Origin: Nitrosopumilaceae archaeon
GTDB lineage: Archaea; Thermoproteota; Nitrososphaeria; Nitrososphaerales; Nitrosopumilaceae
Length of the DNA stretch: 64,000 nucleotides
Reading direction: 5' to 3'
Assembly: GCA_965207375.1 (NCBI GenBank)
Contig: OZ242274.1
Location: 1,344,001-1,408,000 of the forward strand
Made by a program: the position numbers and the translations under genes. Of the stretch, positions 519 to 64,000 are shown one piece after another. The notes beneath the pieces were generated by a model. It had not been told where the DNA came from and searched no databases. It was given only the letters and a program-made list of their open reading frames with translations. Position 1 is the stretch's first letter. Every line of letters starts with the position of its first letter.

Positions 519-879
519 TTATACAGCAATGCCCCTTGCCTTCAGATAAATCCTACGCCTCATGGCACGACAAACGGACTTACTCGCTATACATCATAGG
601 AATCTGTCAAATAAAAAGTAAGTGTTGATCAGATTTTACTAAATTAATAATTTTAGGATGGTATTTTATACACTAGATCTATTACGGTAAGAGTTGATTC
701 GTAATTGATAAATCTTGTCAAAATTTCAATTGCACATACTCAGGTCACCTCTGATTCTATGTAGTTTTTGAACATATGTGAAAATTTTGTGCCTGAAAAA
801 TTTACGGCCAGAGTTTGTACCAAAAAATTAAGGCTAGATGTTAAATTTACTCGATTTTTGGTTATTTTAGAAAATCATT

Positions 880-921
880 GATCAAGGAATTTGTGCGATA
901 TTAGAAAGTGGACCTGACGGG
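880..921 (-). other. Displaced tRNA 3' end / attachment site (att) of the element at 922-11327
   Basis: Minus strand CCCGTCAGGTCCAC (908-921) equals 63426-63439, and ACAAATTCCTTGATC (880-894) equals 63454-63468. Bases 909-921 match 11323-11335 at 11/13 as a direct repeat. Confidence 0.7.
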
Positions 922-9919: not shown

Positions 9920-11277
9920 CTATGTGTCTGTGATCAGACTTCTAGCACATGATACTAGTGCCTTGTCTGTATGTTCAGATATTGTTCTGCTACAGTATGG
10001 ACATGTGTGCGTATTGTCAGTCATGTGACAATACCAATACTGATTTGCATAAAAGACTAATTTTTTTTCATCAATCCTGCGTGCTAGGGATTCTACCATG
10101 CTACGCAGATTTTGTATCTGTCTGTCCTTGTCAGCCTCTAACTCTGCTATTTTTTTATTTTTGAGACGGTTTGATTCGGCAAGATGTACAGAATCATCTA
10201 TAGTGAGATTTGGAACAGCACAAATGTATTCTTCGGCAAGCTCCATGTTGTGCGTCTTAAAGTAATTTTTGTCAAGACTTACTAGTCCGGCATGGCCCAT
10301 CATGTATTCCTTTTTGATCAACGATGCAAGCGGTGAATCATTGGAGAGGGATTCTTTGCACGCTTTGTTCCAGAACCTTCTAAAACTGTTCATCATGGGA
10401 ACCTCGAATCTGCGCTGAATCTTGTGTTCTGGGTAGCGCAACCCCACATTGCCGATGGTTCTCTCTACTCTCTTTTTTATTCCCTTGATACTTGCCTTTG
10501 CAGGTTCTGTTCCGTCTTTTTTGAACACTGGATCTTCTGGAAGAGGCATTCTTCCCACCTCGCGGGTCCAAGCATCACGATAATTGCATACTGCCTCATA
10601 TGCTTCTGGGGTGATAAAAGCAGGATATCTTGCACTTGTCCCCTGATATATGGTCAACATGGCACATGTAACTATGGACTCTTTTGTACTATCAAAGCTT
10701 TGCGTGCTGCCGTTTTTGTATATTGGGCGTATGTCTCCCCAGTTTAGATCAAATCCACCTATGAGGATTCCAGAACTTGCCGCAATCAATATTATGGTCC
10801 GCTCTATGGGACCTCTTGCAAACTTTAACATCTTTTGAATTTCGTCTTTATTCCATCCGCGTGAATATAGGGTGTTGTCAATCTCTGGAAATGTAGCATA
10901 GATGCGCTTCCAAGATATTGTAATGTCATTCATATCCAATAATTTTTTTATCGGTTTGAAATAGTTGGAAAAAGAAGAAGGATTGTAATAGTTTGGATCA
11001 TCCTGTGGTAATTGGGTACACACTGTCGCATCTTTTTTGATATTCCTAAAAGCAGATCACGAATCCAGTCTGGATTCTCTTTGCCGTATTTTACAAACTG
11101 CTCTACTCGCTGCTCAAATGTACCATCAAGTATCTCATCTAGCACACCACACAATATGTATCGCAGACTGTGCGTGTATTTTTCACGGGTCTGCTCTGCC
11201 TTTATTCCCTGCAAGAACAACTCCATAGTCGATGCTGTATCTGTCCTTTCAAATCCTTCCTTTGTCAGTTTCATCAT
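9920..11277 (-). pseudogene. Tyrosine recombinase/integrase, frameshifted near 11030
   Basis: Two overlapping ORFs (10948-11277 and 9920-11023). Motifs NSFRRFWNK, EYMMGH and LDKNY are present. The first catalytic Arg appears replaced (SSGILIG). Confidence 0.8.
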
Positions 11278-11322: not shown

Positions 11323-11396
11323 TAGAACTGACGGGATTTGAACCCGTGACCCGTTATGTTTCAAGTAACGATTCAGCCAGCCTAAACTACAGGCCC
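11323..11396 (-). tRNA. Atypical tRNA copy 1: Ala-type acceptor (G3:U70) with GAA anticodon; acceptor 3' strand degraded by integration
   Basis: GGGCCTG TA GTTT AGGCTGGCT GAAT C GTTAC TTGAAAC ATAAC GGGTC ACGGG TTCAAAT CCCGT CAGTTCT A. 74-nt cloverleaf with mismatches at 4:69 and 31:39. Confidence 0.75.
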
Positions 11397-11430
11397 ACAA
11401 GTATTTTATAGTAATGATACAATATAAAAT

Positions 11431-11478
11431 CATGTTTCAAGTAACAAAGGCTACATACTGAACTAGCCTGTTTTTTTT
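11431..11478 (+). ncRNA. Putative antisense small RNA against the anticodon arm of tRNA copy 1
   Basis: 11432-11445 is identical to 11356-11369 (14 bp), followed by an AGGCTA-N10-TAGCCT hairpin and T8. TATA-like TTTTATA at 11404-11410. Confidence 0.6.
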
Positions 11479-24464: not shown

Positions 24465-24692
24465 TCACAGCTGTAAAATCATCTCATGTACCTGTCCTGC
24501 AGGGGCTGATAACACCTTTAGAATTACTTCCTTTCTTATACCATCACTTTGGTATATTATTTTGATTCGTTCAGTACCTAAAATACTCACACTATACAGT
24601 TCAGATATTACCACACCGTCTATCCTGATGGTACCATCAATGTGCAGTACCGTATGTGTCCCATCTATACTACAATCAAACTCGCCTTTCAT
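24465..24692 (-). CDS. Hypothetical protein co-transcribed with the VirB11-like ATPase
   Basis: Overlaps the 3' end of the ATPase gene. Confidence 0.45.
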   Translation of the reverse strand: MKGEFDCSIDGTHTVLHIDGTIRIDGVVISELYSVSILGTERIKIIYQSDGIRKEVILKVLSAPAGQVHEMILQL

Positions 24693-26136
24693 AGTATCTC
24701 CTCAAAATGTCAAATACAGCCTTTGGATTTTTAGCTTCCTGTTTAACACATTCGTTTAGCAATCCCATTCTTTTTTTCATATCCTCTGGCCCGTCTCGTA
24801 TTCCGCATACGGTACAGGCCTCGATATATCTTGCACATTCATCAAGTGGTTTCTTGTTCAGCAATTTATCTACAAACACATCATACTCGTATACCGCCTC
24901 TATCTTGATTTTGCCTGTTTCATCAGGTACGATTTCTGAAATATTATTTACCCGTCTCACATTTTTACCGTGTAAATCAACTAGTCTTGTATTCATACAA
25001 AACCATGTTAGTGCAATCTCACCATCAGAAATTTTATTTCCACGCATTCGTGTTATTGCGCCTTCTGCCGTACTTGCATGAAAGCTTGTCAGTCCGCCGT
25101 GGCCGGTACCCACACTCTGAAACAACATCTCCATATCATTGAGTCTTATTTCACCTATTACCTCAAAGTCTGGACGCTGTGTCAGACTAGAATCTATCAG
25201 ATCCTTTATTTTGATGTCATATTTTGATGCAAGCATTCCGTAACTTTTACGAGTGTTGTATCTTACCCAGTCTGAATGTGGTACCTGTAATTCCAAAGTA
25301 TCCTCGATAGTAACAATGCGCCATCTGGGATTCATCATCGTCATCAGACTAGATAGTAACGTGGTTTTTCCAGAACCTGTAACTCCGATTACTAAACCTA
25401 CTGCCTTTGCGTCAAGTAGGGTCCAAAGGTAAGCTGCGGCCTCTTCACTTATTCCGCCTCCAGAAATTATATGAGTTATAGTTAAAGGAGATTCTGGAAA
25501 TTTCCTGATAGCAATTATGGGCCCAGGCTTTGATACCTGACTGCCAAAGGTACATGAAATTCTAGAGCCATCTGGCATGTATGTAACTGAAATAGGTGAG
25601 CTTTCTGTGGGTTCAGTACCTGTCCTGCCATAAATTCTTTGAATGAACTTTTCCATTTCGATACTATCTGGAAATTTGATGTTAGATTCTAGTGACTGGA
25701 ACTGTCCAGAATATTTCTTGTGTACAATGTGTATGTTTCTGTCATATGCAGAACACAAAATATCTTCTATACCAGGATCTCGCATGGGTACATCAAGCAA
25801 TCCATTTCCCAACATGTCGCGCCGGATATAATATCGAATGTTTGAGAATTTCTTTACAACACTTTCGTATATTTCCAGTCTTTTGGCAGTATCCCAAAAT
25901 GTCTTTTCAAACTTTTGTGTCACTTCCTCATCTGTCTCATCTGTGAGTTCTGTAGTCATTTCCATCTTTTTTATGATTTTATCATACATTTCATCTGTAT
26001 CTGATGGAATTTGTGGTTCATCTACCATGTATCTACCAGTATCAGTTATGGTGACTTTGACATCTCCTATATCGTATTGTTCTAGTATACCGGCCTCTGT
26101 TGTTTTCATATCTGCACGCAAGAGTCTGTAATCCAA
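24676..26136 (-). CDS. VirB11/TadA-like type II/IV secretion ATPase
   Basis: DPGIEDI, IAIRKF, Walker A GVTGSGKTT, TIEDTLEL, RPD..VIGEIR and TGHGGLTSFHA. Confidence 0.9.
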   Translation of the reverse strand: MDYRLLRADMKTTEAGILEQYDIGDVKVTITDTGRYMVDEPQIPSDTDEMYDKIIKKMEMTTELTDETDEEVTQKFEKTFWDTAKRLEIYESVVKKFSNIRYYIRRDMLGNGLLDVPMRDPGIEDILCSAYDRNIHIVHKKYSGQFQSLESNIKFPDSIEMEKFIQRIYGRTGTEPTESSPISVTYMPDGSRISCTFGSQVSKPGPIIAIRKFPESPLTITHIISGGGISEEAAAYLWTLLDAKAVGLVIGVTGSGKTTLLSSLMTMMNPRWRIVTIEDTLELQVPHSDWVRYNTRKSYGMLASKYDIKIKDLIDSSLTQRPDFEVIGEIRLNDMEMLFQSVGTGHGGLTSFHASTAEGAITRMRGNKISDGEIALTWFCMNTRLVDLHGKNVRRVNNISEIVPDETGKIKIEAVYEYDVFVDKLLNKKPLDECARYIEACTVCGIRDGPEDMKKRMGLLNECVKQEAKNPKAVFDILRRYYERRV

Positions 26137-26511: not shown

Positions 26512-28416
26512 TTGTTTGGAAAAAAGAAGAACACATCAAAAAAGGATACGCCAAAAAAGACACCAAAGAAAAAGATGCCAAAAATAAGCTACAAGCTACG
26601 TCCCACAAATTATGCCATTTTATCTGAACAAGAAAAAATGGATGTTTTAAGAAATTTCATCAGGATATTTCGAGGCTCATCAGAAAAACCGGTCCGCATG
26701 ACTATAATGAACAAATCATCCATAGTATCAATACCAGGTGACACTGAACCCAGAAACTATACAGAACGTGCAGTATACATCACATCCAAATACGACATGG
26801 GGCCAGAAATTATGGGAAGCGGATTTCCCAGTACCAGATTAGATGAACCACTTGATTTTGCCATTGAAAAAGAGAATCTAAATTCTATGAAAATAAAACC
26901 ATCAGGTTGTTTTCGTGCATATGTTGTTTATGATTTCTCTCATAGTATTAGACCCGCTTGGCTCTCAAAACTTGCTGATTTGTGTAGTATAGTAAATGTT
27001 GATGTAAAGTTTATCCGTCCGGATAAGGCAGGCAAGATGCTACTTGTTCATGCAAATACTGTAGGTAGCCGTATTGGTAAAAGATATCAAGAAGAAGCAG
27101 AAACTGCACGAGCATTAAACGATATGCTAACAGACAATGATACTGTAATTTACGAGTGTACAATTTCTACTATCGTTACATCAGAAGATGAAAAATCTTT
27201 GAAAAAAGCATGTGCTGAATTTGAACGCCAAGCAAGAAGACAGCAGATTAAAGTAATGTCAGTACAGGGCAAACAAGCTGAAATACTATCTGGCTGGGGT
27301 CATCCATTTATCTTTCCAGAACAATCCACTGCTGCATTTTATCCGTTCATGTCTGGCGACCTAATGGAGGCTTCAGAATCAGGCGGTGTATACTTGGGTA
27401 CAAATGAGCTCACAGGTGTCCCCGTAGTATATGATTATCTAAACCGTACCAACTACAACATGACTATACTGGGCTCTTCCGGATTTGGTAAATCAATGAC
27501 TGCAAAAACATACATTGATAATTTCTTTTCCATGATATACTCAAAGTACGGCAAGGATCACCGAATCATGGCATACATCTTTGATCTGCACGGAGAATAT
27601 GCAAAATTAGCAGATCATATGGGAATGGAAACAGTAGATTTACTATCTACAAACCAGATGGGCCTAGACCCGTTTGTGTTATTTGAGTCAAAAAATGCAG
27701 CAGTGGATATAATTACTGATGTTGTAGATATGCCTGCAAATCTAAAATCTTTGACTGTATCAAAAGCACAAAATGTAGGTACCACACGGGAATTGGTAGA
27801 AAAGTTACGTGCAGATACTTCTGCGGATTCTGGTGACTGTAGAGCTGCTGCCACATATTTGGCACAGTTTGCAGAAGGTGATCTAGCAAAGGTCTTTTCT
27901 GGTGACGTAAAATTAGGCGATAAAACCGTAATTGCCATGCGTGGTGCAAGTGAGACAAAAATCAACGCCATGCTGATATCTTTGGCACTACAAAAGGCAT
28001 GGCAGGATATGAGGGCAGCACCCACTCATGTGCCAAAGTTTCTGGTACTAGAGGAGGCATGGTTCACTTTAAGGATGCCCTCTACTGCTAAAATAATATC
28101 AAATATTGCCCGCTCTGGACGAAAGGAAAATGTCCACATGATTGTCATGACACAGGATATCAACGAGGTACTATCTAACGAGCACGGCGCTGCAGTAATT
28201 CAAAATTCTGCCACTGTAATTTTGATGAGATTGCAGCATGACTCTGCTGAATTATTACAAAAGGTGATAAATATTTCAGCAAATGAATGTGATGATATCA
28301 CTACAATGGATAAGGGTCAGGCAATAATTCGTGCAGATTCGAATCGAATTAAAATGAAGGTTCGTCCCACACCAGAACAGATGAAACTCTTTGATACTTC
28401 AGCTGGTGCAGAATAA
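26512..28416 (+). CDS. VirB4-like conjugative ATPase
   Basis: VYLG..G.PV, N.NMTILGSSGFGKS, FDLHGEY, VLEEAW, RSGRKE..TQD and GQA. Confidence 0.85.
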   Translation: MFGKKKNTSKKDTPKKTPKKKMPKISYKLRPTNYAILSEQEKMDVLRNFIRIFRGSSEKPVRMTIMNKSSIVSIPGDTEPRNYTERAVYITSKYDMGPEIMGSGFPSTRLDEPLDFAIEKENLNSMKIKPSGCFRAYVVYDFSHSIRPAWLSKLADLCSIVNVDVKFIRPDKAGKMLLVHANTVGSRIGKRYQEEAETARALNDMLTDNDTVIYECTISTIVTSEDEKSLKKACAEFERQARRQQIKVMSVQGKQAEILSGWGHPFIFPEQSTAAFYPFMSGDLMEASESGGVYLGTNELTGVPVVYDYLNRTNYNMTILGSSGFGKSMTAKTYIDNFFSMIYSKYGKDHRIMAYIFDLHGEYAKLADHMGMETVDLLSTNQMGLDPFVLFESKNAAVDIITDVVDMPANLKSLTVSKAQNVGTTRELVEKLRADTSADSGDCRAAATYLAQFAEGDLAKVFSGDVKLGDKTVIAMRGASETKINAMLISLALQKAWQDMRAAPTHVPKFLVLEEAWFTLRMPSTAKIISNIARSGRKENVHMIVMTQDINEVLSNEHGAAVIQNSATVILMRLQHDSAELLQKVINISANECDDITTMDKGQAIIRADSNRIKMKVRPTPEQMKLFDTSAGAE

Positions 28417-28585: not shown

Positions 28586-29431
28586 TTGTCAAAGCAGATA
28601 TTCAATACACAACACAAAAATAATTTAGATACTATCGAGCAAAAGTTAGGTAAACCATACTATAGAGATGATACAGTGTTGTTGTACAACATGGATTGTA
28701 TAGATCTTTTAAGCAAGATTAATTCTAAATGTTTTGATTTAACTATAACTTCACCACCATACAATATTGGAAAAGAATACGAAATAATTCAAAAACATGA
28801 TGATTACTTGCAATGGTGCACAAAATGGCTTGATCTGATTTTTAATGTAACTAATGATAACGGTGCGTTTTGGCTCAACCTTGGATATTTTGAATTGCCA
28901 TCTAAAGGTAAGGCGGTCCCAATAAATTATCTATTATGGGATAAAACAAAATTTTATTTTATGCAAGAAATTGTATGGTATTATAAAGCAGGCGTGGCTA
29001 CAAAAAAATATTTTTCACCAAGAAATGAAAAATATTTGTGGTATGTTAAAAATTCCCAGAAATACATATTTAATTTAGATGATGTGCGTGATCCAAATGT
29101 AAAATATCCCAACCAGAAAAAAAATGGAAGGTTAAAGTGTAATCCAAATGGAAAAAACCCTACAAACGTTTGGGAAATACCCAAAGTCACATCTGGTAAA
29201 AACCGGTCTTCAAAAGAACGAATTAATCACCCTGCTCAATTTCCACTAGATGTGATAGACAGAATAGTAAAATCATGCAGTAATGCCAACGATTTGATAT
29301 TTGATCCTTTTATTGGCTCTGGAAGTACAGCCGTATCTGCATTAATGAATAATCGATTAGCATTGGGTTGTGACATAAATACAGAGTATTTAGATATAAC
29401 AATTAATAGAATAAAATCAATTAATTGTTAA
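28586..29431 (+). CDS. DNA methyltransferase, N4-C/N6-A beta class (ScaI-like system)
   Basis: TSPPYN, HPAQFP and DPFIGSGST. Confidence 0.9.
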   Translation: MSKQIFNTQHKNNLDTIEQKLGKPYYRDDTVLLYNMDCIDLLSKINSKCFDLTITSPPYNIGKEYEIIQKHDDYLQWCTKWLDLIFNVTNDNGAFWLNLGYFELPSKGKAVPINYLLWDKTKFYFMQEIVWYYKAGVATKKYFSPRNEKYLWYVKNSQKYIFNLDDVRDPNVKYPNQKKNGRLKCNPNGKNPTNVWEIPKVTSGKNRSSKERINHPAQFPLDVIDRIVKSCSNANDLIFDPFIGSGSTAVSALMNNRLALGCDINTEYLDITINRIKSINC

Positions 29432-30100
29432 CATCTTGTATTTTGCAGCATTTGGAGCCAATCTTGACTGTTGACCTGATTGTGCTTTTTGTCCTATCCA
29501 ATCATTATGGTCCAACCAACCTAATCATATCAGTTTAATTTTTGGGTGTGTATTATTTACACTAAACTTTTCAAAATTAATTGCAAGATAATAGCCTGAT
29601 TTTGATTTTTTGGGTGTTTGTATAGTTTGTGTATAGCTTCTATTTCCAAAAATTTTTGATGGGTTTGAGGAGGTCTTTACTTCGATTGAAAAACGTTTGT
29701 TTTCCATATTGACTATATCCTTATCTTGTGCTTCTTTTTCACACCTCCATATTTTTGGATTTGAATTTGATATTTCAAGACAAATAAGTTCATGTAAGAA
29801 AAAACCCATAATTTGTGGTTTTGGAAAAATATCTACACCGATTTTATATCTTCCAATAGTTGTATTCATAATACAATCCCAAGAATCCGATACAGTTTTT
29901 TTAATGTAATCTGTAGTTAATGGATGTTCTTTTATCAGCAATTTGGTTTTTGATTTCCATTGTGATTCATCTAAATTTAGGTATGGTGAACTCAATAATT
30001 CTGTTGGATTTTTAGAGTATATTTGTGATCTGTGAAAATAGTGGCTTGTAGTACCGTTCAAATGTATAATTTGCTTTTTTGTCCTGATAAATAGACCCAA
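29417..30100 (-). pseudogene. ScaI-family restriction endonuclease with an in-frame TGA at 29525-29527
   Basis: PQIMGFFLHELI, SIEVKTSS, GNRSY and KSGYYLAINF. The frame continues LGWLDHNDWIGQ...GQQSRL to 29417. Confidence 0.75.
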
Positions 30101-35977: not shown

Positions 35978-36742
35978 ATGTTGAAAAACCCCATTAAACT
36001 AAACACCATACATTGTGGGGATGTACTTGATATACTGAAAACATTTCCATCTAATTCCATTGATTTAGTTGTTACTTCTCCTCCATACAATCTTAAAAAT
36101 TCAACTGGAAATGGCCTTAAATGTGGAAATGGTGGTAAATGGCCTCAAGCTGCATTAATTGAGGGGTATGACAAGTATGATGATGCAATGCCATATGACA
36201 AGTATGTGGAATGGCAACGAAAATGTCTCAAATCCTTGATGCGTGTAATTAGTGATAACGGTGCCATATTCTACAATCACAAATGGCGAGTACAAAAGGG
36301 AATAATACAAGACAGGCATGAAATAATAGAAGAGTTTCCTGTACGACAAATCATAATCTGGGAACGTAATGGGGGAATAAACTTCAACCCTGGCTATTTT
36401 CTGCCTACATATGAAGTCATATACCTCATAGCCAAGCCTGGTTTTAAGTTGAAAAAGGATGCATCCAAAATTGGAGATGTCTGGAAAATAGGACAGGAAC
36501 AAAAGAATTGGCATCCGGCACCGTTTCCGGTAGAATTGGCATCAAGATGTATAGGTTCTACTGGTGCAGATATAGTGCTGGATCCATTTATGGGTTCAGG
36601 CAGTACAGCGATAGCTGCAGAGCAGAATGGACGTAAATGGGTCGGAATTGACATTTCAAAAGAATACTGTACTAAAGCCAAGACTAGGATCAAAACTGCT
36701 AGAAAACATGAACGTTCTCAGGATATTACTGCTTGGCGATGA
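35978..36742 (+). CDS. DNA methyltransferase, N4-C/N6-A beta class
   Basis: TSPPYN, HPAPFP and DPFMGSGST. Confidence 0.9.
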   Translation: MLKNPIKLNTIHCGDVLDILKTFPSNSIDLVVTSPPYNLKNSTGNGLKCGNGGKWPQAALIEGYDKYDDAMPYDKYVEWQRKCLKSLMRVISDNGAIFYNHKWRVQKGIIQDRHEIIEEFPVRQIIIWERNGGINFNPGYFLPTYEVIYLIAKPGFKLKKDASKIGDVWKIGQEQKNWHPAPFPVELASRCIGSTGADIVLDPFMGSGSTAIAAEQNGRKWVGIDISKEYCTKAKTRIKTARKHERSQDITAWR

Positions 36743-38048: not shown

Positions 38049-38741
38049 ATGCAGTGTGAAACAAGGTATCTGTCAATAAATACAGAAAGACTTTTGGGTC
38101 GTAAACTTAATGATATAGAGTTAAAGGCCGATCCAGGAACAGTTTTTGTAAAAGGTTCTTTAGAAATTCCACTACCGTCCCCAAAAGTATCAATCATTGG
38201 TTCTAGAAAAGCGTCCCCCGAAGGAATTGCAAATGCCCAAAAGATTGCAAAAACGTTGATTGAAAATCAAGTAATCATTGTTAGTGGACTTGCTGAAGGG
38301 ATAGATACTGCTGCACATGTCACAGCATTAAACATGAATGGAAAAACTATTGCGGTGATAGGCACCCCATTAGACAAAACATATCCGAAAATAAACTATA
38401 CACTTCAACAAGAATTGATGAAAAATCATCTTGTAGTTTCACAATTTCCGATAGGTTATCCAATCACCGGAAAAAATTTCGTAATACGAAACAGAACAAT
38501 GGCACTTATTTCTGATGCCTCAGTAATTGTAGAAGCTGGAGAAACAAGCGGTTCAAAACATCAAGGATGGGAAACACTTAGAATGGGAAGACCGTTATTC
38601 ATTTGGGAATCCGTTGTAAATAATAAAGAGTTAGATTGGCCCACAGAAATGATGGATCACGGTGCCGTAGAATTATCTAAACCATCAGACATACTTGAAG
38701 TACTACCAACACGTTTTAAAATAATTGATGTGTTTCAATAG
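38049..38741 (+). CDS. dprA: DprA/Smf-family protein
   Basis: IIGSRKAS, VSGLAEGIDTAAH, F..RNR.MA and IVEAGE.SGS. Confidence 0.9.
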   Translation: MQCETRYLSINTERLLGRKLNDIELKADPGTVFVKGSLEIPLPSPKVSIIGSRKASPEGIANAQKIAKTLIENQVIIVSGLAEGIDTAAHVTALNMNGKTIAVIGTPLDKTYPKINYTLQQELMKNHLVVSQFPIGYPITGKNFVIRNRTMALISDASVIVEAGETSGSKHQGWETLRMGRPLFIWESVVNNKELDWPTEMMDHGAVELSKPSDILEVLPTRFKIIDVFQ

Positions 38742-47706: not shown

Positions 47707-48984
47707 TCATAATTTCCCTGTAAGATACTTTTTGAATAGAGGTATGGAAAATTGATATGTGCCGCGTTGGGATTTGTGTACTAGTTCTTTTTCTTCTAGT
47801 CGTTTGAGGTGATTGTAAACTGTTCCTTTCCCCATGCCTGTTGTTGTACAAATGGAAGAAAAATCTACAACATTATCCGGAAGTGATGCCATAGAATTCA
47901 ATACGCTATTCTGGGCGGTACTCAGAGCAGACATACGTTGTATAAAGAAACTATGTTCAAGTTTTTTCAATATGGGCGAGCGTACTGTCCTATAATAATC
48001 AAGATCAATGTGCTGTTTTCCACCAGCTCTTTCTATGATCTCGCTACAGAAAAATTGAATAAAATATGGATATCTATCCGTATCTAGTATGAGAGTGGAA
48101 GTTAATTCATCAGAAAAATTCCAATGGGATGACTTGAGTGGTTCTAAAATGGCTCTTTTAGCGTCATAATCTTCCAAGTTGGAGATGGGCATTGATTCAA
48201 ACATTCTTTCAGAATATGAGCGGGATATTTTGACATTGGAGATCATTGGAGGTAGACCACACAAAACAAGCGAAAACTTGTAGCCTTCTATCTGTAAAAG
48301 ATTTATTGCACCTATAAAATCTGCAAGGGTATACCAACCCTTCTTCTTGACATCGTTAATGACATGAAATTCATCTAGTAGGAACACTAGACCTTCAATG
48401 CCTTTTGGTTCCAATACATTCCATGCATTTTTCAAATAATCATATATTCTGTTATCTAAAGGTGCATATGCATCTAGATCATATGCGGGTTGATACGAAA
48501 TCAATCCCGGAATCTCTATCTTCATAGGTTTGAGATATCTTGCGGTGGCCATGATCCTTTTCTTTGCTTTATTGGTCTTAGAACATGCCTTTATTGCCCT
48601 ATCTAAGTCGTACTGGAGACATTTTACAAATATATTGGGATCTGCATGTTGTGTAGTGTATTGTGACCTTGAAATTGGGAGAAATTTTTTATCAATACAG
48701 ATTTCAGCAAATCTATTCAAAAGAACAGTCTTTCCTACACCTCGAAGACCATACAGCAATTTATTTTCAACCTTGCCTGCCTTGATGCGTTGCAACATGT
48801 GTGAGAATGTATCTAGCTCCGAGTTCCTGCCTGCAAGGTATGGTGGTTTCAAACCTGAACCTGGTGTGAATGGATTGTTGTAATCAGACACACATATGTC
48901 ACAATATGATTCGCTATAAACATAATCGAAAACATGTAGATAGAATTGTTTGTCTGATTTTTTGATATTTTTGCGGCTAGTCAC
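47707..48984 (-). CDS. AAA+ ATPase with C-terminal winged HTH
   Basis: NPFTPG, LAGR..E, GLRGVGKT, LLDEF, YPYFIQ and HLKRLEEKELV...RGTY.F. Confidence 0.85.
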   Translation of the reverse strand: MTSRKNIKKSDKQFYLHVFDYVYSESYCDICVSDYNNPFTPGSGLKPPYLAGRNSELDTFSHMLQRIKAGKVENKLLYGLRGVGKTVLLNRFAEICIDKKFLPISRSQYTTQHADPNIFVKCLQYDLDRAIKACSKTNKAKKRIMATARYLKPMKIEIPGLISYQPAYDLDAYAPLDNRIYDYLKNAWNVLEPKGIEGLVFLLDEFHVINDVKKKGWYTLADFIGAINLLQIEGYKFSLVLCGLPPMISNVKISRSYSERMFESMPISNLEDYDAKRAILEPLKSSHWNFSDELTSTLILDTDRYPYFIQFFCSEIIERAGGKQHIDLDYYRTVRSPILKKLEHSFFIQRMSALSTAQNSVLNSMASLPDNVVDFSSICTTTGMGKGTVYNHLKRLEEKELVHKSQRGTYQFSIPLFKKYLTGKL

Positions 48985-50660: not shown

Positions 50661-52155
50661 GTACTTGTTCACGTGGTGTCTACAATTTCACCATTTGTTC
50701 AAATTTTGATCACCATCAGATCTAAATCATTCTGACTCACAAGTTGTATAATGAGTACCATCAACTGGAAAAGTGCATACAAAAAGGAACACCGAAAAGT
50801 CCTTCTTCTTGAATCTCTAGTATCAAGTTTACAAAAAATCATATTACAAAAAGATGACCTCCTACTACAAAAAGATAAAAAAATTCAAGAGCTTACCAAA
50901 CGTGACAACTATCATGACAATTCCAATACTCCTCCATCTAAGGATTCCATTACACGCAAGCAGGACCGCAAAATACGTGCAGAGAACAAAAAATCTACTG
51001 GAAAAAAACAGGGAGGACAACCTGGTCGCACAGGTGTAGCCCGCAAGGTCAAAGTAGATGAAGAAAAAGAGCACAAATTAGACACGTGTACCAAGTGTGG
51101 TTCTCAAGACATACACCATACAGACACCAAAATCAGGATAATAACTGATATTGTAAAAACTCCTCCTCCACATACTTGCAAGCACAAGATTCATGGGTAT
51201 CATTGCAACTGCTGTGGAGCTACTGACATTACACCCGAGGTTGACATTCCAAAAAAAGGTCAGTTTGGAAATGAAGTGATAAAGGAGATAATGGATAACC
51301 ACATACATCGCATGCCGGTACGTATGAACAAGGAGGCCATGAAAAGACGTGGAATCGAAATATCTGAAGGAGGTATTCAAAACATCATAGATACAGTCTC
51401 TGATGCGTTATTTGTGCCTGCAAATGAGATAAAAGAAAAGATACAGGAAGCCGAGATTCTGATAGCAGATGAGACATCAGAGCGACTGCATGGAAAGACT
51501 ATATGGTTGTGGACGTTTCATAATCCAATTACAAGTGAGAATTTCTATATAATTAATCCCAGCAGGGGAGCAAACGTACTCAAGGAAATAATAGGTGACT
51601 CACAAGATATAATCATTACCTGTGACGGATGGCCTCCATACCGCAGATATATCATCCAGAGATGTAACGCGCACCTAATACGTGAAATCAAAACAATATC
51701 ACAAAAGAATCCAGATTCTAAAATTGCAAAAAATACACTGCAATGCCTACAAAAGATATACCATGACGGCAAACATGTCCTAGACAAACCACCTGATTAC
51801 AGAGAATCATATGCTGTACAATTGGAAAAAAGAACACGTAACCTTGTCAAAAGGTATGCCAATGATGAAATTGTGGGTAAATTTGTAGCAAAACTGTCAC
51901 GGGCCATACCTGACATGTTCCGGTTTGTCATAGACCCTCGTATACCATCTACAAGCAATCTTGCAGAGCAGAGCCTGCGTGAGTATGTTGTGTGCAGGAG
52001 AATACGTGGATGTCTCAGATCTGAAAAAAGTATGGAGCGTAGAGGCAATCTGTATACGTGTGTTACTACCTGGAAGAATCTGGGACAGGATTATCTAGCA
52101 GAGCTGGTTCGGTACATTTAGGGCCAAAAATGCTCAAAAATAGGTGAACAAGTAC
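50661..52155 (+). mobile_element. IS66-family element with 8-bp target duplication
   Basis: TIR GTACTTGTTCAC/GTGAACAAGTAC; AGTTTTTT at 50653-50660 and 52156-52163. Confidence 0.9.
50751..52121 (+). CDS. IS66-family transposase
   Basis: NSNTPPSKD, GGQPG..G, ADET, CDGW, QRCNAHLIRE and TSN.AEQ.LR. Confidence 0.9.
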   Translation: MSTINWKSAYKKEHRKVLLLESLVSSLQKIILQKDDLLLQKDKKIQELTKRDNYHDNSNTPPSKDSITRKQDRKIRAENKKSTGKKQGGQPGRTGVARKVKVDEEKEHKLDTCTKCGSQDIHHTDTKIRIITDIVKTPPPHTCKHKIHGYHCNCCGATDITPEVDIPKKGQFGNEVIKEIMDNHIHRMPVRMNKEAMKRRGIEISEGGIQNIIDTVSDALFVPANEIKEKIQEAEILIADETSERLHGKTIWLWTFHNPITSENFYIINPSRGANVLKEIIGDSQDIIITCDGWPPYRRYIIQRCNAHLIREIKTISQKNPDSKIAKNTLQCLQKIYHDGKHVLDKPPDYRESYAVQLEKRTRNLVKRYANDEIVGKFVAKLSRAIPDMFRFVIDPRIPSTSNLAEQSLREYVVCRRIRGCLRSEKSMERRGNLYTCVTTWKNLGQDYLAELVRYI

Positions 52156-57256: not shown

Positions 57257-60200
57257 ATGTTTTACATACAAAAACAACAACAAATACAGCGTAAAATTAC
57301 TAGTTTAACATTAATGGCAATCATGGTTGCTGGTGGTATGACCTTTGCAGTACCAGGAATGACACCGGAGGCTTATGCTGCCAATGCAAACCTGTTTGTC
57401 TCCGCAGAAAACTCACTATTTGACAATTACATGGCAGGACCTCAAGTAATTGAGGTGGTAATAATTGATTCATCTATTTCTGATACTGATGAAAGCAAGG
57501 GAGAACCTGACGTTACAGTTAATGGCAACAACCTGAGAATGGTTCAAGCCACTGACGGTAACTGGTATGGTTACTTTGCTGATTATGCAATGGCAAAGTT
57601 AGCTGCTTCTGAACCTAATGGATTGAACTTTGGTGCAGGAGATGCAGAAGCTTCTGCTGATTCTATAGGTCTTGACACAATTGAAGCTGATGGACTCTTT
57701 TACAACGATAACAATAATGTCAACGTTATAAGAGAAGAAAAGGACGTAAACCAGAATAGAGTTGGTGTTGGTAATGGAACTAACGCAAATCCATATGGTG
57801 GTCAAATAGGCATCGATGAAGGTGCATGGCCATTCATCCAACTGTACAAACTAAGTCAAGGTGGCAATGTTGTGGTACAGTACAACAAGGGTGGTGACAC
57901 ACAAAGCACAATCCTAACCTTTGATACTGTTGATGACTATGCAGGTATAGAACTGGACAGAACTTCTTATCCACAAGGAGCACAAGTTCATGCAACTGTT
58001 ATTGATGTGTGGTTAAACATTGACCCAACTGACGAAGATTCATGGACGTTTAATACTGTAAATGGTACAGCATACTATCATGTCTATAATGACGATGATG
58101 GTGGAAGAGGTGATAACGATTCATTGAAACCCATTATCTTACTCGACTACACTAGCAATCATACAGTTAATTCTGTAGATGTTGGAAACTTGATGTGTTC
58201 AGATTGTGCCTTGAAATTAAATCCTAATGTTCAAGGTGATGATAAACACGTCATTACAATTCAGGACAATGCAGATTCTATAATTGTTAACAAAGGCGAT
58301 ACTGCCGATAAAGCAGATGCTTGGGTACGTGACGGTGTAGCAATTATAACGTTAGGTCAAGGCACTCAACCAGTTACTATCACAGAACAAGGACCTAACA
58401 GTGGAATCTTTGGTACTTATGACGAGTATGACCTATCTGTACTCAAAATCATCGATGATGCAGATAGAGACACGTTAGCTACTATCGATTACAATGATAG
58501 TCTAGTATCTGTCCTAGTCACTCACGCATTTGCTACAATTGACATTCAACCAGCATCTGACGTTTGGTACAGCGGTGAACTAATACCAGTCGTTCTTGTC
58601 GATGCTGATAATAACAAAAATAGTAGAGCAGACGAGGACATTAGATTAAGTGATCCTAGCTACAAAATAATTCCTAGTCTTAGGACTGGAGACCCAATTA
58701 CATTGGGTAGTGGAGTAGATAGTAACGGACAAATCACAGTGTACTATGACGGTATAGAAAAGAAAACAGATGTGAATGCATTCAGCGACAGGGCAATTCT
58801 AAATGATACTGTCCCTGACGGCACAGTAAGTTCAATACTAATCGATCTTGGTATTACCGGTGATGAATTAAAAGCCTCTTTGGTTGATACAACTGCTGAC
58901 AAAAACTACGGATACAACCTATTCAATTATGACATTAGTTCATTGCCTGAAGGCACTGTAAACATATCATTGGTTAACACCACAAACGGTGTATCAATCG
59001 ATGTTGATTTAGTTTGTGAAACATCAAGAAGTGGTCTAGAATTATTGAATGGTATTACTTGTGACCCACTAACAGAACCAACATCAATAGTAATTCCATC
59101 ACTACACTCCGATAGTGCTTACGAATCACAACACTTTGGAACAGCATTTGATACAATAGTTTCAGACTATAGCGTCACTTTTCCCAAAGTATTTAGCTCA
59201 CAAAAGCTAGACTTGGGAACTAATCCTATACAATCTGTACTAGATACAGGATCTATAGTCGATACTTTTGAACAGTTGAGAATTCTTAACGAAACCAGCA
59301 AGATCGGTACAGACGTTGGGGACATTTCCTTGTTAAGTTACTCTTCAACAGCACAATCATTTGCAAAACCAGGCGATGGTATATTTAGATTGACTATAGA
59401 TACCTCCCGTCAGGTGGAATTGAATAGCCCACAGACAGTATCATGTATTGACTGTGCGCTTAATTCATTTGGTGAAATCTTTGGACAAACAGTTCAGGTA
59501 CAATCAACACAATTATCTGATGCAGGTACAATCACAGATCTATTGCAAGTTCCAAACAATGACACCAAAGTAGGAATACTAATTGAATACCATAAAGACA
59601 ACGTTCGAACGTATCATGCAACCGATGCCGAGGCAGATCCAATCGTATTGGACTTTTTCGCATTTGGATTTGGTGATGACGGAAGAACAGCTAACCAAAT
59701 AGTCAGACTTGAATTGGAAGAATCTGGCGATAACACTGACACCTTTGAAGGCGGTCTTGAATACACCATGCTTAACCAACTCAATATTCTGGACGCATAT
59801 ACATACACCGGACTTGACCCTATATCTGATGAGCCAACATTTATCGTAATGGAGGATCTAACAGATGAGGATTCTCCTCGAGTCAATTATCTTGACCTGG
59901 GGGCAGACGGTGTATCAATACAGATTGCTGACCAACAAGAGGCACCATCACACTCTGGTGTGGTAGCACTTGATTCAGACAACTACAAGGTTGCTGATAC
60001 GGTGATTGTCACATTGACTGATGCTGACCTAAACGTGGACAGTGACTTGATTGATATATTCACTACAGTTGCACATGGACACGGTGGCATGTCTGATACG
60101 GTAGGTGAAGATGTAGAGTTTAATGGTGAATCCGTCAATATTGGTGGTTCTCCATTAGGACGATTACTTGACATTACCTTTGATGACCAGATATGGACTG

Positions 60201-62248
60201 TAAACGAATGTACTCCAATAGACGGATTTGATGACGGCTTGCACGATACAGGTTTCACACTAATTGAAACCGAGACTGCAAGTGGTGTCTTTACTGGTGC
60301 ATTTCAGATTCCAACAGAATATTGCCGAAACGATGCAAAATTCGTTGACGGTAAATATGTACGAGAATCTGTTATTGGTACTGACATTGAGGTAAACTAT
60401 GTCGACTTTAGAGACGCATCTGGCGAAACCATCGAAGTAGGTGATTCAGCAGGTGTACGACACAGCACCGGTTCAGTATCTCTTGACAGAACTGTTTATC
60501 CAGTTCCATTTGCTGAAAACACATTCAATTTGCATGCTTCAGCAGGCGATGACCAATACCTGCCAACAGGTGATGTAACAATTCACATTAGGGTTTCAGA
60601 TTCTGACTATAACATATCAGCCTCCGACGAAGATAAAATTGCAAGCGGTACAACGGGACCTGTAGAGGTTACTGTTTCAAGAGGACAAGCATCTAAAATT
60701 GTTGCAACAGCAGGCGCAGCAACTGCAAATGCTATTGCAAATGAGTATGGACCAATCACAGAGATTGCACCTGACGAGGGAATATTTGAAGCGGCTATTT
60801 CAATTAGTTACAAGGACGGTCCCACAAACGGTTGTCCAGAATACAACCCAGATGACGGACCTAACATATTCGCAGATGGATGTGTTCTACAGGGAGACAT
60901 TGTCACCGTAGAATATACAGATCCAACTGACGCATCGGGTGAACCAAACACTGTAACTGATTCAGCTACATTTGACTTGAGAAACTCCGTACTGCAATCT
61001 GACAAGCCAGTTTACATCATTGGAAGCGATATGATCTTGACTCTAATCGAGCCAGACTTTGATCTTGACAATGATGCAGCCGAGTCATATTCACTTGATC
61101 TAATCGAGTGGGATTCAGATGCTGCAATGGTTTCAATGGGCACATTGGGCGGTGCAAAATCCAATAATGGAAACGACTTTGATCCAGAACCATCTGATTT
61201 TAGAGAAACAGGCGACAGCACTGGAGTCTTCCAGGTTGTAATCGAAATTCCTGAAGAACTTGATGGTAACAAATTCAAAAGAGGTGAAGAAATTGAACTA
61301 GAGTATACTGATTGGGGCCCATCTGGTTCTAACTATGTTGGTGAAGCATATGACGACATTAATCTTACAATTTTCACATCAAACTTTGGTAGTACGGTGG
61401 AGCTAGACCAAAATGCCTACACTTGGACTGATAAGGTCTACATTACTATAGTGGCACCTGATCACAACTTTGATTCTGACTTGATAGATGAAATAGGTAA
61501 TACTGATGACGACCCAATAAGGATTGCAACTAAAAGTGCGGTTCTTGACAACTACAAGTTGGAAGAGACAGGCACTGACACTGGAATCTTTACTGGTGAA
61601 GTAATCCTTACAGGATTTGCACATGATGCTAATGGTGACGGCGAAACTGACGACTCAAACCCACGTACAGGTTACGGTAATGGTAACATTAAGGGCTTGG
61701 GTCCAACCAACGGATTCCTAGAAACTAAAGATAATGACGATCTCAGTGTATCCTTTGAATTTTCAGAGGATGAAATGGTAGTAGGATCAGCACTAATCAG
61801 ATGGAATATCGGTGAGGTTCAATGGCTTGAAGCAAGCTATGCATCTAGCGGTACAGGTGTAGTCAGAGTAATAGACCCAGACATGAATTTAAATCCAGAA
61901 TCAGTCGATAACTTTGAGATTGATGTCTGGTTAGATACACCTACCAGAGGTATTAACTTGACTGTAACTGAGACAAACCAGGCAACGGGAATCTTTGAGG
62001 GAACAGTATTCTTTACTGTGACTGACGAGTCTTCCGGACACAGACTGCAAGTCTCAGAAGGTGACACTGTCACTGCGGAATATACAGACCGCACACTACC
62101 TGAACCACACAATACATTAGATAAGCTTGACATTTTTGCAACAACACAGATTGACTCAATCATGCCTCCATTTGAGAGAGTACCAGATATCAACTTGAGA
62201 ATGGGTGATGCATTTAGCCACATGCTAGATAAGATTCTTCATCGTTAA
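57257..62248 (+). CDS. slaA: Nitrosopumilus-type S-layer protein, C-terminally truncated by an IS6-end insertion
   Basis: RKITSLTLMAIMVAGGMTFA.PG..P.A.AANANLFVSAENS N-terminus, repeated ETG.DTG.F.G motifs and acidic composition. Confidence 0.85.
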   Translation: MFYIQKQQQIQRKITSLTLMAIMVAGGMTFAVPGMTPEAYAANANLFVSAENSLFDNYMAGPQVIEVVIIDSSISDTDESKGEPDVTVNGNNLRMVQATDGNWYGYFADYAMAKLAASEPNGLNFGAGDAEASADSIGLDTIEADGLFYNDNNNVNVIREEKDVNQNRVGVGNGTNANPYGGQIGIDEGAWPFIQLYKLSQGGNVVVQYNKGGDTQSTILTFDTVDDYAGIELDRTSYPQGAQVHATVIDVWLNIDPTDEDSWTFNTVNGTAYYHVYNDDDGGRGDNDSLKPIILLDYTSNHTVNSVDVGNLMCSDCALKLNPNVQGDDKHVITIQDNADSIIVNKGDTADKADAWVRDGVAIITLGQGTQPVTITEQGPNSGIFGTYDEYDLSVLKIIDDADRDTLATIDYNDSLVSVLVTHAFATIDIQPASDVWYSGELIPVVLVDADNNKNSRADEDIRLSDPSYKIIPSLRTGDPITLGSGVDSNGQITVYYDGIEKKTDVNAFSDRAILNDTVPDGTVSSILIDLGITGDELKASLVDTTADKNYGYNLFNYDISSLPEGTVNISLVNTTNGVSIDVDLVCETSRSGLELLNGITCDPLTEPTSIVIPSLHSDSAYESQHFGTAFDTIVSDYSVTFPKVFSSQKLDLGTNPIQSVLDTGSIVDTFEQLRILNETSKIGTDVGDISLLSYSSTAQSFAKPGDGIFRLTIDTSRQVELNSPQTVSCIDCALNSFGEIFGQTVQVQSTQLSDAGTITDLLQVPNNDTKVGILIEYHKDNVRTYHATDAEADPIVLDFFAFGFGDDGRTANQIVRLELEESGDNTDTFEGGLEYTMLNQLNILDAYTYTGLDPISDEPTFIVMEDLTDEDSPRVNYLDLGADGVSIQIADQQEAPSHSGVVALDSDNYKVADTVIVTLTDADLNVDSDLIDIFTTVAHGHGGMSDTVGEDVEFNGESVNIGGSPLGRLLDITFDDQIWTVNECTPIDGFDDGLHDTGFTLIETETASGVFTGAFQIPTEYCRNDAKFVDGKYVRESVIGTDIEVNYVDFRDASGETIEVGDSAGVRHSTGSVSLDRTVYPVPFAENTFNLHASAGDDQYLPTGDVTIHIRVSDSDYNISASDEDKIASGTTGPVEVTVSRGQASKIVATAGAATANAIANEYGPITEIAPDEGIFEAAISISYKDGPTNGCPEYNPDDGPNIFADGCVLQGDIVTVEYTDPTDASGEPNTVTDSATFDLRNSVLQSDKPVYIIGSDMILTLIEPDFDLDNDAAESYSLDLIEWDSDAAMVSMGTLGGAKSNNGNDFDPEPSDFRETGDSTGVFQVVIEIPEELDGNKFKRGEEIELEYTDWGPSGSNYVGEAYDDINLTIFTSNFGSTVELDQNAYTWTDKVYITIVAPDHNFDSDLIDEIGNTDDDPIRIATKSAVLDNYKLEETGTDTGIFTGEVILTGFAHDANGDGETDDSNPRTGYGNGNIKGLGPTNGFLETKDNDDLSVSFEFSEDEMVVGSALIRWNIGEVQWLEASYASSGTGVVRVIDPDMNLNPESVDNFEIDVWLDTPTRGINLTVTETNQATGIFEGTVFFTVTDESSGHRLQVSEGDTVTAEYTDRTLPEPHNTLDKLDIFATTQIDSIMPPFERVPDINLRMGDAFSHMLDKILHR

Positions 62249-63037: not shown

Positions 63038-63146
63038 CAAAGAAACATGATCTTGTTTGAAGAATCAATAAAATCGAAATACACTAAAAGAAACTACATA
63101 TCACAAATAAACCGATTCAAAACATTCAAGGGTGTATCTAGTACAA
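63038..63146 (+). pseudogene. Integrase N-terminal remnant interrupted by a MITE A end
   Basis: QRNMILFEESIKSKYTKRNY resembles thaumarchaeal integrase N-termini (compare LFLQGIKAEQTREKY in the 11277 ORF). Confidence 0.45.
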
Positions 63147-63282
63147 AGAGATGTTTCGTAATTAGAAAATCACACCTAACAAGAGCAAAAATTTCAGATA
63201 TTACATTTAGACGATAGGATTCCATACCTTGAACATCATTATAAAAACACATTTAGAAAGATTTGAATCATAAACAGAAATT

Positions 63283-63331
63283 AAAAAAAACAGGCTAGTT
63301 CAGTAGGTAGCCTTTGTTGCCTGAAAGTCAA
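63283..63331 (-). ncRNA. Putative antisense small RNA against the anticodon arm of tRNA copy 2
   Basis: 63317-63331 matches 63393-63407 at 14/15. AGGCTA-N10-TAGCCT hairpin and T8 on the minus strand; TATA-like box at 63351-63357. Confidence 0.6.
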
Positions 63332-63364
63332 ATTTATTACGTATAATAAGTATAAAATCCTTGT

Positions 63365-63438
63365 GGGCCTGTGGTTCAGCTTGGTAGAACGATTGCCTGA
63401 AAGCCAATAGGTCACGGGTTCAAATCCCGTCAGGTCCA
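63365..63438 (+). tRNA. Atypical tRNA copy 2: Ala-type acceptor (G3:U70, A73) with GAA anticodon
   Basis: GGGCCTG TG GTTC AGCTTGGTA GAAC G ATTGC CTGAAAG CCAAT AGGTC ACGGG TTCAAAT CCCGT CAGGTCC A. The only mismatch is C31:C39. Confidence 0.85.
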
Positions 63439-63540
63439 CATTTTACTTTCCGTACAAATTCCTTGATCGACTTGAGATAGAGTTTGTACCTGATTTTGTA
63501 CTGATTTGCCCCCTTTTATACAAAATAATTCTATGTCACC

Positions 63541-63876
63541 ATGATATTAATCGCAATTGTAGCCGTTGTCATAATCTTTCTTGCCATTGGTACTGCCATG
63601 AACTATTACTCACACAGAGATGATGTTTCACAAAAACAAGAGGTCTCAAATATTATCCAAAACGACCGAATAAAGGAACAACTTACTGTATCTAGAAACG
63701 ACTCACATCTGTTTGTTGCAAACCAGTGGGGTGGAGAGTCGTCCACACTACAGGCAATAGGTATCACATGTGATGATGGGCGTGTCTTTACAACACAGCT
63801 AAAGATAAACATAACATCACTACACATCGCCAACCAGTCAAAGGTATTTGAGGAACTGAACGCCAAATGTGGCTAG
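63541..63876 (+). CDS. Membrane-anchored hypothetical protein (pilin-associated-like)
   Basis: N-terminal hydrophobic helix; element-type promoter 27 nt upstream. Confidence 0.6.
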   Translation: MILIAIVAVVIIFLAIGTAMNYYSHRDDVSQKQEVSNIIQNDRIKEQLTVSRNDSHLFVANQWGGESSTLQAIGITCDDGRVFTTQLKINITSLHIANQSKVFEELNAKCG

Positions 63877-64000
63877 TGATTTTACTGCTTTGTGTACTAT
63901 GTGTGCCAGCAGCATGGGCCCAGTCAGAGGAAATAATACGTCACGGTGACCAAACTGCATTTACACTACACATACCAGATATCATGATTGCAGGTGACAT
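63876..64000 (+). CDS. Secreted protein, partial (runs off the window)
   Basis: GTG start overlapping the previous stop; MILLLCVLCVPAAWA signal-like peptide. Confidence 0.45.
   Translation, partial: MILLLCVLCVPAAWAQSEEIIRHGDQTAFTLHIPDIMIAGD

Follow-up and report, generated by a model that had tools for sequence, protein, structure and literature searches.

Mistranslating variants of tRNA-Ala are among the closest described counterparts of the gene treated here. An engineered yeast tRNA-Ala with the anticodon GAA slowed growth at a single copy and gave no transformants from a multicopy plasmid (PMC10543346), and natural human anticodon variants of tRNA-Ala mistranslate (PMC12084884); these variants are single mutations of housekeeping genes that join alanine identity to a non-alanine anticodon. 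The same combination is found in a tRNA gene, here called F, at positions 63365-63438 of the window, by which we mean the whole stretch of 64,000 nucleotides analysed (C1:1344001-1408000) from a Nitrosopumilaceae archaeon. The host genome, labelled G000 (other G-numbers denote the genomes of relatives), is an assembly of four contigs, of which C1 has 2.16 Mb and 38% G+C. Judged by its sequence and its relatives, F is a genuine tRNA gene, maintained by selection, and belongs to an accessory family present in some Nitrosopumilaceae. Unlike the yeast and human variants, this family has had the whole anticodon arm replaced, is conserved in multiple genomes and carries a matched upstream element.

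Proline-type tRNAs of Streptomyces with other anticodons form another natural family in which identity and anticodon are mismatched, and they have a dedicated synthetase paralogue. The present family resembles them in being a maintained gene family whose identity and anticodon disagree, and differs in that a single alanyl-tRNA synthetase (AlaRS) gene was found in the host genome, the partner is a short RNA-like element and the hosts are archaea. Compared with canonical archaeal tRNA-Ala, F has the same G1-C72, G2-C71, G3.U70 and A73, an identical T arm plus acceptor strand and flanks like those of tRNA-Ala(UGC), but it has GAA instead of NGC, an AT-rich anticodon stem and a 31:39 mismatch, and the family as a whole occurs in several copies in variable islands and has an upstream copy of the anticodon arm. 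In the full-text literature (partial coverage, without supplements), neither a described archaeal family of alanine-type tRNAs with non-alanine anticodons nor a tRNA paired with an anti-anticodon element was found. Mismatched tRNAs as such are already known; the mechanism here is possibly of a categorically new kind.

The gene and its trailer are as follows.

63365..63438, plus strand: tRNA gene F, its acceptor of alanine type (G3:U70, A73), with GAA as the anticodon and C31 mismatched with C39 (ARAGORN, Rfam, parsed arms)
63439..63468, plus strand: 3' trailer common to the family members and resembling the tRNA-Ala(UGC) trailer (within-genome BLAST of the unit, alignments)

Two tRNA-Phe(gaa) genes are predicted in the window by ARAGORN, at 63365-63439 (+) and 11322-11397 (-). 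With the Rfam model RF00005, F scores 63.1 bits, well above the gathering score of 29 and inside the range of 43-70 bits of the housekeeping tRNAs of the host genome; the second window copy scores 39.5 bits. The acceptor of F (GGGCCUG/CAGGUCC+A) contains G1-C72, G2-C71, G3.U70 and the discriminator A73, the D stem is GUUC/GAAC, the AT-rich anticodon stem (AUUGC/CCAAU, with C31 facing C39) carries the loop CUGAAAG, and the T arm is ACGGG-UUCAAAU-CCCGU. U8, A14, G18-G19, U33, A37 and the T-loop residues are all present. A sequence-only reading of this stretch had noted G3:U70, A73 and GAA in F and a 31:39 mismatch in both window copies; ARAGORN, Rfam and renewed reading of the sequence confirm each of these, the mismatch being C31.C39 in F and C31.A39 in the second copy. 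Since window positions 63163-64000 show no differences from the contigs of two runs (two samples of one study), an assembly error in the region of F is unlikely.

The fold of the family has been kept by compensatory change. In an alignment of 13 members, 94.4% of the cloverleaf cells are paired, and both sides have changed in 13 of the 21 pairs, with compensatory changes in all four stems. The covariation score of this alignment is 0.606 vs 0.227 after shuffling (0 of 500 shuffles were as high) and does not exceed 0.114 when the partners are slid. Pairs 4:69, 5:68 and 6:67 alternate among C-G, G-C, U-A, A-U and G.U, while pair 3:70 is G.U in all 13 aligned members, and because this wobble is never "repaired" as its neighbours turn over, the alanine mark G3:U70 appears to be under selection. 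The non-random retention of G3:U70 that had been claimed from two copies is thus seen in a family, in which compensatory changes surround an invariant pair. G3.U70 and A73, the marks expected of tRNA-Ala, are present in all 15 parsed members and, by eye, in 12 later ones. The 27 intact members all have A37, and 26 of them have U33 (the other has C33); 31:39 is mismatched in 23 (12/15 parsed and 11/12 later members) with varying letters (C.C, U.U, C.A, A.C, A.A, C.U), so that the mismatch is a recurrent family trait.

It is very improbable that F is a functionless, decaying tRNA-Ala pseudogene. Its AT-rich anticodon stem would suit such an origin, as would the existence of three damaged members in the host genome (c1355, c823 and c1233, with RF00005 scores of 39.5, 38.9 and 31.8 bits), but F and the members c1444 and c1974 stand at 63 bits each, level with the housekeeping tRNAs, the compensatory changes extend to all four stems, and the family has been kept in nine genomes of three genera.

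The body of the family is, to judge from the acceptor marks, the T-arm and acceptor strand and the flanks, derived from tRNA-Ala. The 29-nt segment of F that comprises the T arm and the 3' acceptor strand was matched exactly at 54 loci in other genomes. ARAGORN called 43 of these, every one as tRNA-Ala (32 GGC, 10 UGC, 1 CGC); ten of the remaining 11 had no tRNA call at the match, and one was overlapped by a 92-nt "tRNA-Gln" call. The nine bases 5' of F (aatccttgt) and the trailer resemble the flanks of the host tRNA-Ala(UGC) gene. A likeness to the tRNA-Phe of the lineage was not found: with the anticodon arm masked, the body of F is 0.69 identical to the canonical tRNA-Phe, below its identity to ten other tRNAs. 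In its anticodon the family departs from tRNA-Ala, NGC being found in none of the 28 members. AlaRS recognises G3:U70 and ignores the anticodon, and the family tRNAs should therefore accept alanine.

A quite improbable alternative regards F as an extra tRNA-Phe from a mobile element, charged by PheRS and supplementing the decoding of UUU/UUC in an AT-rich genome, with G3:U70 as a harmless inheritance. This would suit the mobile-element island in which F lies, the GAA anticodon of 15 of the 28 members, and the presence in F of G34, A35, A36 and A73, the common phenylalanine determinants according to PMC9976931. Yet G3:U70 stays a wobble in every member while the neighbouring pairs change, and the matched upstream copy described below is left unexplained. 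Moreover, nine of the 28 members have leucine anticodons on a body with a short variable arm, which LeuRS should refuse since it requires a long one, and both the 31:39 mismatch and A37, in place of the G37 of the canonical gene, would be odd in a working tRNA-Phe.

An alanine-type tRNA able to misread Phe codons, maintained and regulated, is the reading of F that we adopt, with a confidence that stops a little short of an even chance. Several points weigh against it. Crude body identity does not single out tRNA-Ala: the best match of F is tRNA-Val(CAC) at 0.83, followed by values of 0.79 for Ala(GGC) and 0.76 for Ala(UGC). The six GAA members of the host genome would be a heavy burden if every one of them were active, and a 31:39 mismatch is expected to weaken decoding. 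F also bears the PheRS determinants G34, A35, A36 and A73, and the table of identity elements in PMC9976931 contains no experimentally characterised alanine determinants for Archaea. Because the GAA members carry that determinant set, charging by both AlaRS and PheRS is possible, and a dual Ala/Phe identity of F is as likely as pure alanylation. Of the earlier claim of alanine identity, the marks themselves (G3:U70, A73, G2-C71) and the GAA anticodon are real. A Phe-to-Ala mistranslator is a plausible reading of F.

The host has ordinary tRNA genes for both amino acids besides F. A canonical tRNA-Phe (starting with GCCAGGG, with the loop CUGAAGA and an encoded CCA) is located at C1:1921027-1921100, and C1 also has tRNA-Ala genes with CGC, GGC and UGC anticodons; F is accordingly not the only tRNA-Phe gene of its host, and the canonical tRNA-Phe and tRNA-Ala genes, whose presence the sequence-only reading had wished to see confirmed, exist. 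A changed genetic code was rejected in a check resting on one gene, that of AlaRS: of the 185 cells of five relatives aligned with its UUU/UUC codons, 143 contain Phe and 4 contain Ala. The other contigs of G000 (C2, C3 and C4; 0.43-0.93 Mb, 36.7-36.9% G+C) have just 14 tRNA genes, whose sequences look eukaryotic to us (Asn-GTT, Arg-TCT and Ser-TGA types); these contigs may be non-archaeal DNA in the assembly, from a host or another source. At C1:242223-242312 (-), ARAGORN reports a 90-nt tRNA with a four-base anticodon (aggt), of which 62 nt (C1:242223-242284) score 29.2 bits with Rfam, right at the threshold.

The family comprises 28 genes in nine Nitrosopumilaceae genomes of three genera. 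Its anticodons are GAA (15), AAG (5), CAG (3), GAG (1), GAU (2) and GUC (2), none of them for alanine. In G000 the GAA members are F, the second window copy (c1355, window 11323-11396) and the genes at C1:1341226, 1444064, 1974999 and 823191 (c1341, c1444, c1974 and c823); in addition there are an AAG gene at C1:234287 and a degenerate relative at C1:1233030 (c1233). By genome, the members are:

G000: eight members, GAA in six and AAG in two
G004: five members, GUC, GAA, AAG, GAG and AAG
G019: five members, GAU, three GAA and CAG
G387: two members, CAG and GAU
G384: one member, GUC (read by eye, without an ARAGORN call)
G368: two members, both GAA
G466: two members, AAG and GAA, in tandem
G017: one member, GAA
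G400: two members, GAA and CAG

The anticodons of these homologues are neither uniformly GAA nor random: the six types are limited to Phe, Leu, Ile and Asp, and U33 and A37 are kept almost throughout. The tandem AAG and GAA units of G466 (locus L173 on its contig C4, 1377-1657) lie 209 nt apart and have almost identical bodies, each with its own matched copy.

Members were sought with the unit of a G019 locus, with a sequence pattern and then with a covariance model built from 13 units, which gives family members 100-157 bits and ordinary tRNAs at most 90 bits. The family is sparse, being found in five of 401 Nitrosopumilaceae genomes with the leader-anchored pattern and in five of 151 genomes of one genus with the model (E<=1e-13, strict filters); these frequencies are lower bounds for the genomes searched. 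The leader-anchored pattern matched 79 of the 401 genomes, nearly always in ordinary tRNAs (Trp, Ala, Pro, Arg) that share a YTTGT leader, and yielded family members in G000, G004, G019, G384 and G387 only. In these 79 genomes, many ordinary tRNA genes (Trp, Ala-GGC, Pro, Arg) begin directly after the pentamer YTTGT, which may be a conserved leader or a start-site feature. A BLAST search with a 212-nt unit gave, outside G000, only tRNA-length matches of about 76% identity, both in 41 relatives and in the 401 genomes, where 15 genomes were matched (E<=1e-7). Exact-pattern scans of viral contigs with two patterns gave no matches, and the sole metagenome match was an ordinary tRNA-Ala(GGC).

Each unit consists of more than the tRNA. 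Upstream of F and of the second window copy, the following features were recognized.

63316..63332, plus strand: copy of F's own anticodon arm (5' strand and loop), 49 nt before the tRNA start, with 11/12 identity to tRNA positions 27-38
63283..63329, minus strand: putative small antisense RNA, beginning with the complement of the anticodon loop and of the 5' stem strand, followed by a hairpin and by U8 at 63283-63290 (sequence, fold)
63330..63364, no strand assigned: AT-rich spacer that holds two conserved boxes (compared with the sequences preceding every tRNA gene on C1)
63330-63340, no strand assigned: box 1 of the spacer, at the distance of the TATA-like box of the host tRNA genes
63351-63358, no strand assigned: box 2 of the spacer, TATAAAAT, an AT box conserved across units
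11432..11478, plus strand: antisense-strand element of the second unit, made up of an anti-anticodon stretch, a hairpin and U8, its copy 12/12 identical to the arm

Throughout the family, a copy of the anticodon arm (5' strand and loop, often more) of 10-20 nt lies 49 or 50 nt before the unit's own tRNA. Identity of copy and arm is at least 10/12 in 13 of 15 units, the exceptions being c823 and the G384 gene, and 10-12/12 in 12 further units. The longest exact string common to copy and arm is 11 nt in F, 11-16 nt in six G000 members vs 5-7 nt in housekeeping tRNAs, and 8-20 nt in the later members. Between paralogues within a genome (14 pairs), the arm is 0.75 identical and the copy 0.75, compared with 0.88 for the hairpin and spacer, 0.86 for tRNA positions 1-26 and 0.96 for positions 44-73. 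The arm and the copy are thus the fastest-changing parts of the unit and are still matched inside each unit. Elsewhere in the upstream element, the D-arm-like part has not stayed identical to the tRNA, and blanket gene conversion therefore explains the pattern poorly. The matched copy suggests that the family tRNAs are regulated, rather than the unchecked, proteome-wide mistranslators that the sequence-only reading had foreseen.

Some serine-type tRNA genes of G000 also have unexpected anticodon loops. The gene at C1:1677242-1677325 (+), outside the window, has a long variable arm and G73 with the anticodon GAA; upstream of it, 13 nt at -71 repeat its variable-arm region and 10 nt at about -52 repeat its anticodon 5' strand and loop, both copies sitting within a hairpin that is preceded by an A-run. 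It has no counterpart in four relatives at E<=1e-5, and it looks, from its arrangement, like a serine analogue of the alanine-type module. The canonical, intron-bearing tRNA-Ser(GGA) is at C1:44747. Two further serine-type bodies, one with GAA and an apparent 14-nt insert after position 37 (C1:1996875-1996975, +) and one reading UAU (C1:349758-349841, -), have no clear upstream copy, their longest shared strings being 5 and 8 nt.

The second window copy, c1355, has served as a landing site for an integrated element. The features concerned are:

11323..11396, minus strand: second family member c1355, with GAA and a C31.A39 mismatch, its 3' acceptor strand exchanged when the element integrated (Rfam 39.5 bits)
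824..921, minus strand: displaced tRNA 3' end, CCCGTCAGGTCCAC, with the original flank, forming the far attachment site (98 nt, 96% identical to the c1341 3' end with its flank)
9920..11277, minus strand: split integrase-like gene in the form of two overlapping ORFs, of 109 and 367 aa, immediately 3' of c1355 (tblastn paralogues)

Copy c1355 and its paralogue c1341 agree exactly as far as CCCGTCAG and differ beyond it, and the integrated element spans about 10.4 kb (window about 921-11335). The acceptor of c1355 (GGGCCUG/CAGUUCU+A, beside a loop UUGAAAC) keeps G3.U70 and has G1.U72 and a C4.U69 mismatch, a faulty stem that explains its low Rfam score. Since integration replaced the original 3' acceptor strand, c1355 is weak as an independent retained copy, and the argument that two diverged copies had both retained their features is weakened. 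The 367-aa ORF has no Pfam match; by tblastn, paralogues of the integrase-like gene adjoin tRNA-Lys and tRNA-Met in the host genome (that beside tRNA-Met overlapping a weak PF00589 match), and a fragment adjoins the genuine tRNA-Ala(UGC) of the relative G004. The mobile elements of thaumarchaea target tRNA genes by short attachment sites, typically at the 3' end, and c1355 agrees with this in its insertion in the 3' part, its short core and its integrase-like neighbour; the targets treated in the available part of that source are ordinary tRNA genes, with no mention there of alanine-type tRNAs with other anticodons or of arm copies (PMC6563490).

These findings bear on a purely DNA-level explanation, in which the family consists of tRNA-Ala-like integrase attachment sites with a partial tandem 5' duplication kept alike by gene conversion and with no role as RNA. 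The history of c1355, with its short core CCCGTCAG and adjacent integrase-like gene, agrees with it, as do isolated 3' fragments of the family in the region and the likeness of the upstream element to tRNA positions ~5-40, as a partial duplication would give. We consider this fairly improbable all the same. The identity is focused on 11-20 nt of the arm while the D-arm part of the element differs, tracts so short would be poor conversion substrates, and paralogous units differ more in the arm and copy than elsewhere. The cloverleaf pairing and loop features (U33 in 26/27, A37 in 27/27) are selected, and the serine-type tRNA of G000 has rearranged copies that simple duplication could not produce. 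As for F itself, no integrase was found beside it by PF00589 and no 3'-end repeat is paired with it, so the direct repeat and integrase-bearing element that mark an attachment site were seen at c1355 and not at F.

On the strand opposite to the tRNA, all 13 units examined have the same order: a single-stranded 5' stretch of about 14 nt that could pair with the anticodon loop and the 5' stem strand of the tRNA encoded next to it, a hairpin of 5-10 pairs and a U-rich tail, which is a run of 5-9 U in 12 of the 13 and merely U-rich in G387. The hairpin sequence varies between genera and the layout is kept. In all five G019 units the opposite-strand hairpin contains 1-3 G.U pairs and the sense-strand hairpin is weaker (opposite/sense: -13.6/-10.1, -12.5/-4.0, -9.4/-1.6, -9.9/-0.6 and -5.4/-1.6 kcal/mol); because the hairpins are stabler there through these G.U pairs, the comparison suggests that it is the opposite strand that is read. 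The whole arrangement suggests a small antisense RNA. Across 13 arms, the best target of every seed is its own tRNA, with mean pairing energies of -23.3 kcal/mol for cognate and -7.6 kcal/mol for non-cognate combinations (values that restate the identity of copy and arm), and with such specificity paralogous units would be insulated from each other. Family-wide, AT boxes are located at -14 to -7 and at -36 to -28. The latter, at the TATA-like distance of this genome, is a candidate promoter of the tRNA, and the former is a candidate promoter for a leftward start near -36, since it is too close for the tRNA and lies at the usual archaeal distance in the leftward direction. A C/D-box guide RNA was considered and rejected by eye, there being no C box.

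The evidence for an antisense RNA is not all of one kind. The five G019 units with the strand asymmetry are paralogues and thus not independent, and in the G000 units and in G004_L105 the strands are neutral or the sense strand folds slightly better. The two antisense hairpins of the window are no stabler than shuffled sequences (z = -0.62 and -0.64; 51 and 44 of 200 shuffles fold at least as well), and a simple terminator scan returned no sites, its loop limit of 8 nt excluding the 10-nt loop found here.

Taken together, the observations can be accommodated in the following scheme. F would descend from a tRNA-Ala whose anticodon arm was swapped for a fast-changing arm with a non-alanine anticodon, here GAA; AlaRS would load it with alanine, with PheRS perhaps competing through GAA and A73, and F would then insert alanine at UUU/UUC codons. 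Two halves would make up the unit of about 230 bp, the tRNA and an opposite-strand RNA of about 50 nt that at its 5' end is the exact complement of its own tRNA's anticodon loop and 5' stem strand. Pairing with the loop, this RNA could invade a stem already weakened by the 31:39 mismatch and so mask or otherwise control the tRNA. The pair may act as a regulated toxin-antitoxin or addiction module of mobile elements, the harmful partner being a stable tRNA, charged with alanine, by which Phe, Leu, Ile or Asp codons are misread, and the rapid, coupled change of arm and copy would prevent cross-protection between paralogous modules. This last step, an all-RNA module of toxin-antitoxin, addiction or defence type made of an alanine-charged misreading tRNA and a divergent antisense RNA, is a real possibility that we nevertheless hold to be doubtful.

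The toxins of type I and type VIII (CreTA) toxin-antitoxin systems are either small RNAs or peptides translated from an mRNA. The units described here, as we read them, share with these systems a compact, divergent two-gene structure, exact complementarity of the predicted partners, a location in mobile elements or islands, and paralogues that differ exactly where the partners pair; they differ in that the candidate harmful partner is a tRNA and in being known here from sequence alone. No system with a tRNA as the harmful partner is known to us.

An alanine-charged tRNA might also be used off the ribosome, either as the donor for an aminoacyl-tRNA-dependent transferase or as a decoy for anticodon nucleases in virus-host conflict. 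Conserved alanine marks beside an anticodon free to vary, a 31:39 mismatch (23/27) suited to a tRNA kept from decoding, and a setting in a defence island are what such a use would lead one to expect. It is improbable, however, given that the canonical U33 and A37 are kept, that the anticodons are confined to Phe, Leu, Ile and Asp and are not drifting, and that no transferase gene is consistently adjacent, the neighbours being mostly family-less proteins and transposases.

The 52 kb between the two units of the window encode VirB4/HerA-like and VirB11-like ATPases, IS66 and other transposases, restriction-modification genes and a DUF488 protein, and an island of mobility and defence genes spans window positions 20000-56000. 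Its recognizable genes include:

24676-26136: VirB11-like ATPase
26512-28416: VirB4/HerA-like ATPase
28586-29431 and 35978-36742: two DNA methylases
29525-30100: ScaI-like endonuclease
38049-38741: DprA
47707-48984: BrxC/D-like ATPase
22729-24219 and 50751-52121: two IS66 transposases

By its gene content, the region is in make-up an integrative-conjugative and defence island, of a sort described for this group of archaea (PMC6563490). Other units are flanked for the most part by transposases, proteins that match no family, an actin-like segregation protein and a TFIIB-like protein, and one G387 unit lies among housekeeping genes. A protein family of about 680 aa is encoded at window 12040-14088 (-) and in at least 12 other places on C1; it has an N-terminal hydrophobic segment (by eye, with the look of a signal peptide), three C-terminal repeats and no Pfam match, and its copies adjoin several, not most, tRNA units. 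A link between the units and this secreted repeat protein (682 aa) was rejected, as it has at least 12 full genome copies, most of them without a nearby tRNA. At window 63144-63192 there is a repeat of about 50 nt with more than 20 C1 copies at 82-94% identity, whose summed contig depth is far above its surroundings in all four runs examined. Two long ORFs are found on the plus strand of the window, one of 1928 aa (3830-9616) with bacterial Ig, HYR, cadherin-like and fibronectin domains and one of 1663 aa (57257-62248) with no Pfam match.

Even if the module reading fails, the family shows that tRNA-Ala-like genes act as secondary landing sites of integrases and that ordinary tRNA finders mislabel such genes as tRNA-Phe, -Leu, -Ile or -Asp. 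If alanine charging and antisense control are both true, this would be the first case known to us of mistranslation as a regulated weapon or addiction device of mobile elements, and it would supply natural orthogonal pairs of tRNA and anti-tRNA. Natural tRNAs in which the loading identity and the anticodon conflict are rare and bear on how the genetic code stays accurate or bends; here selection maintains such a family, together with a sequence-matched partner element, in archaea that oxidise ammonia and have a major part in the nitrogen cycle.

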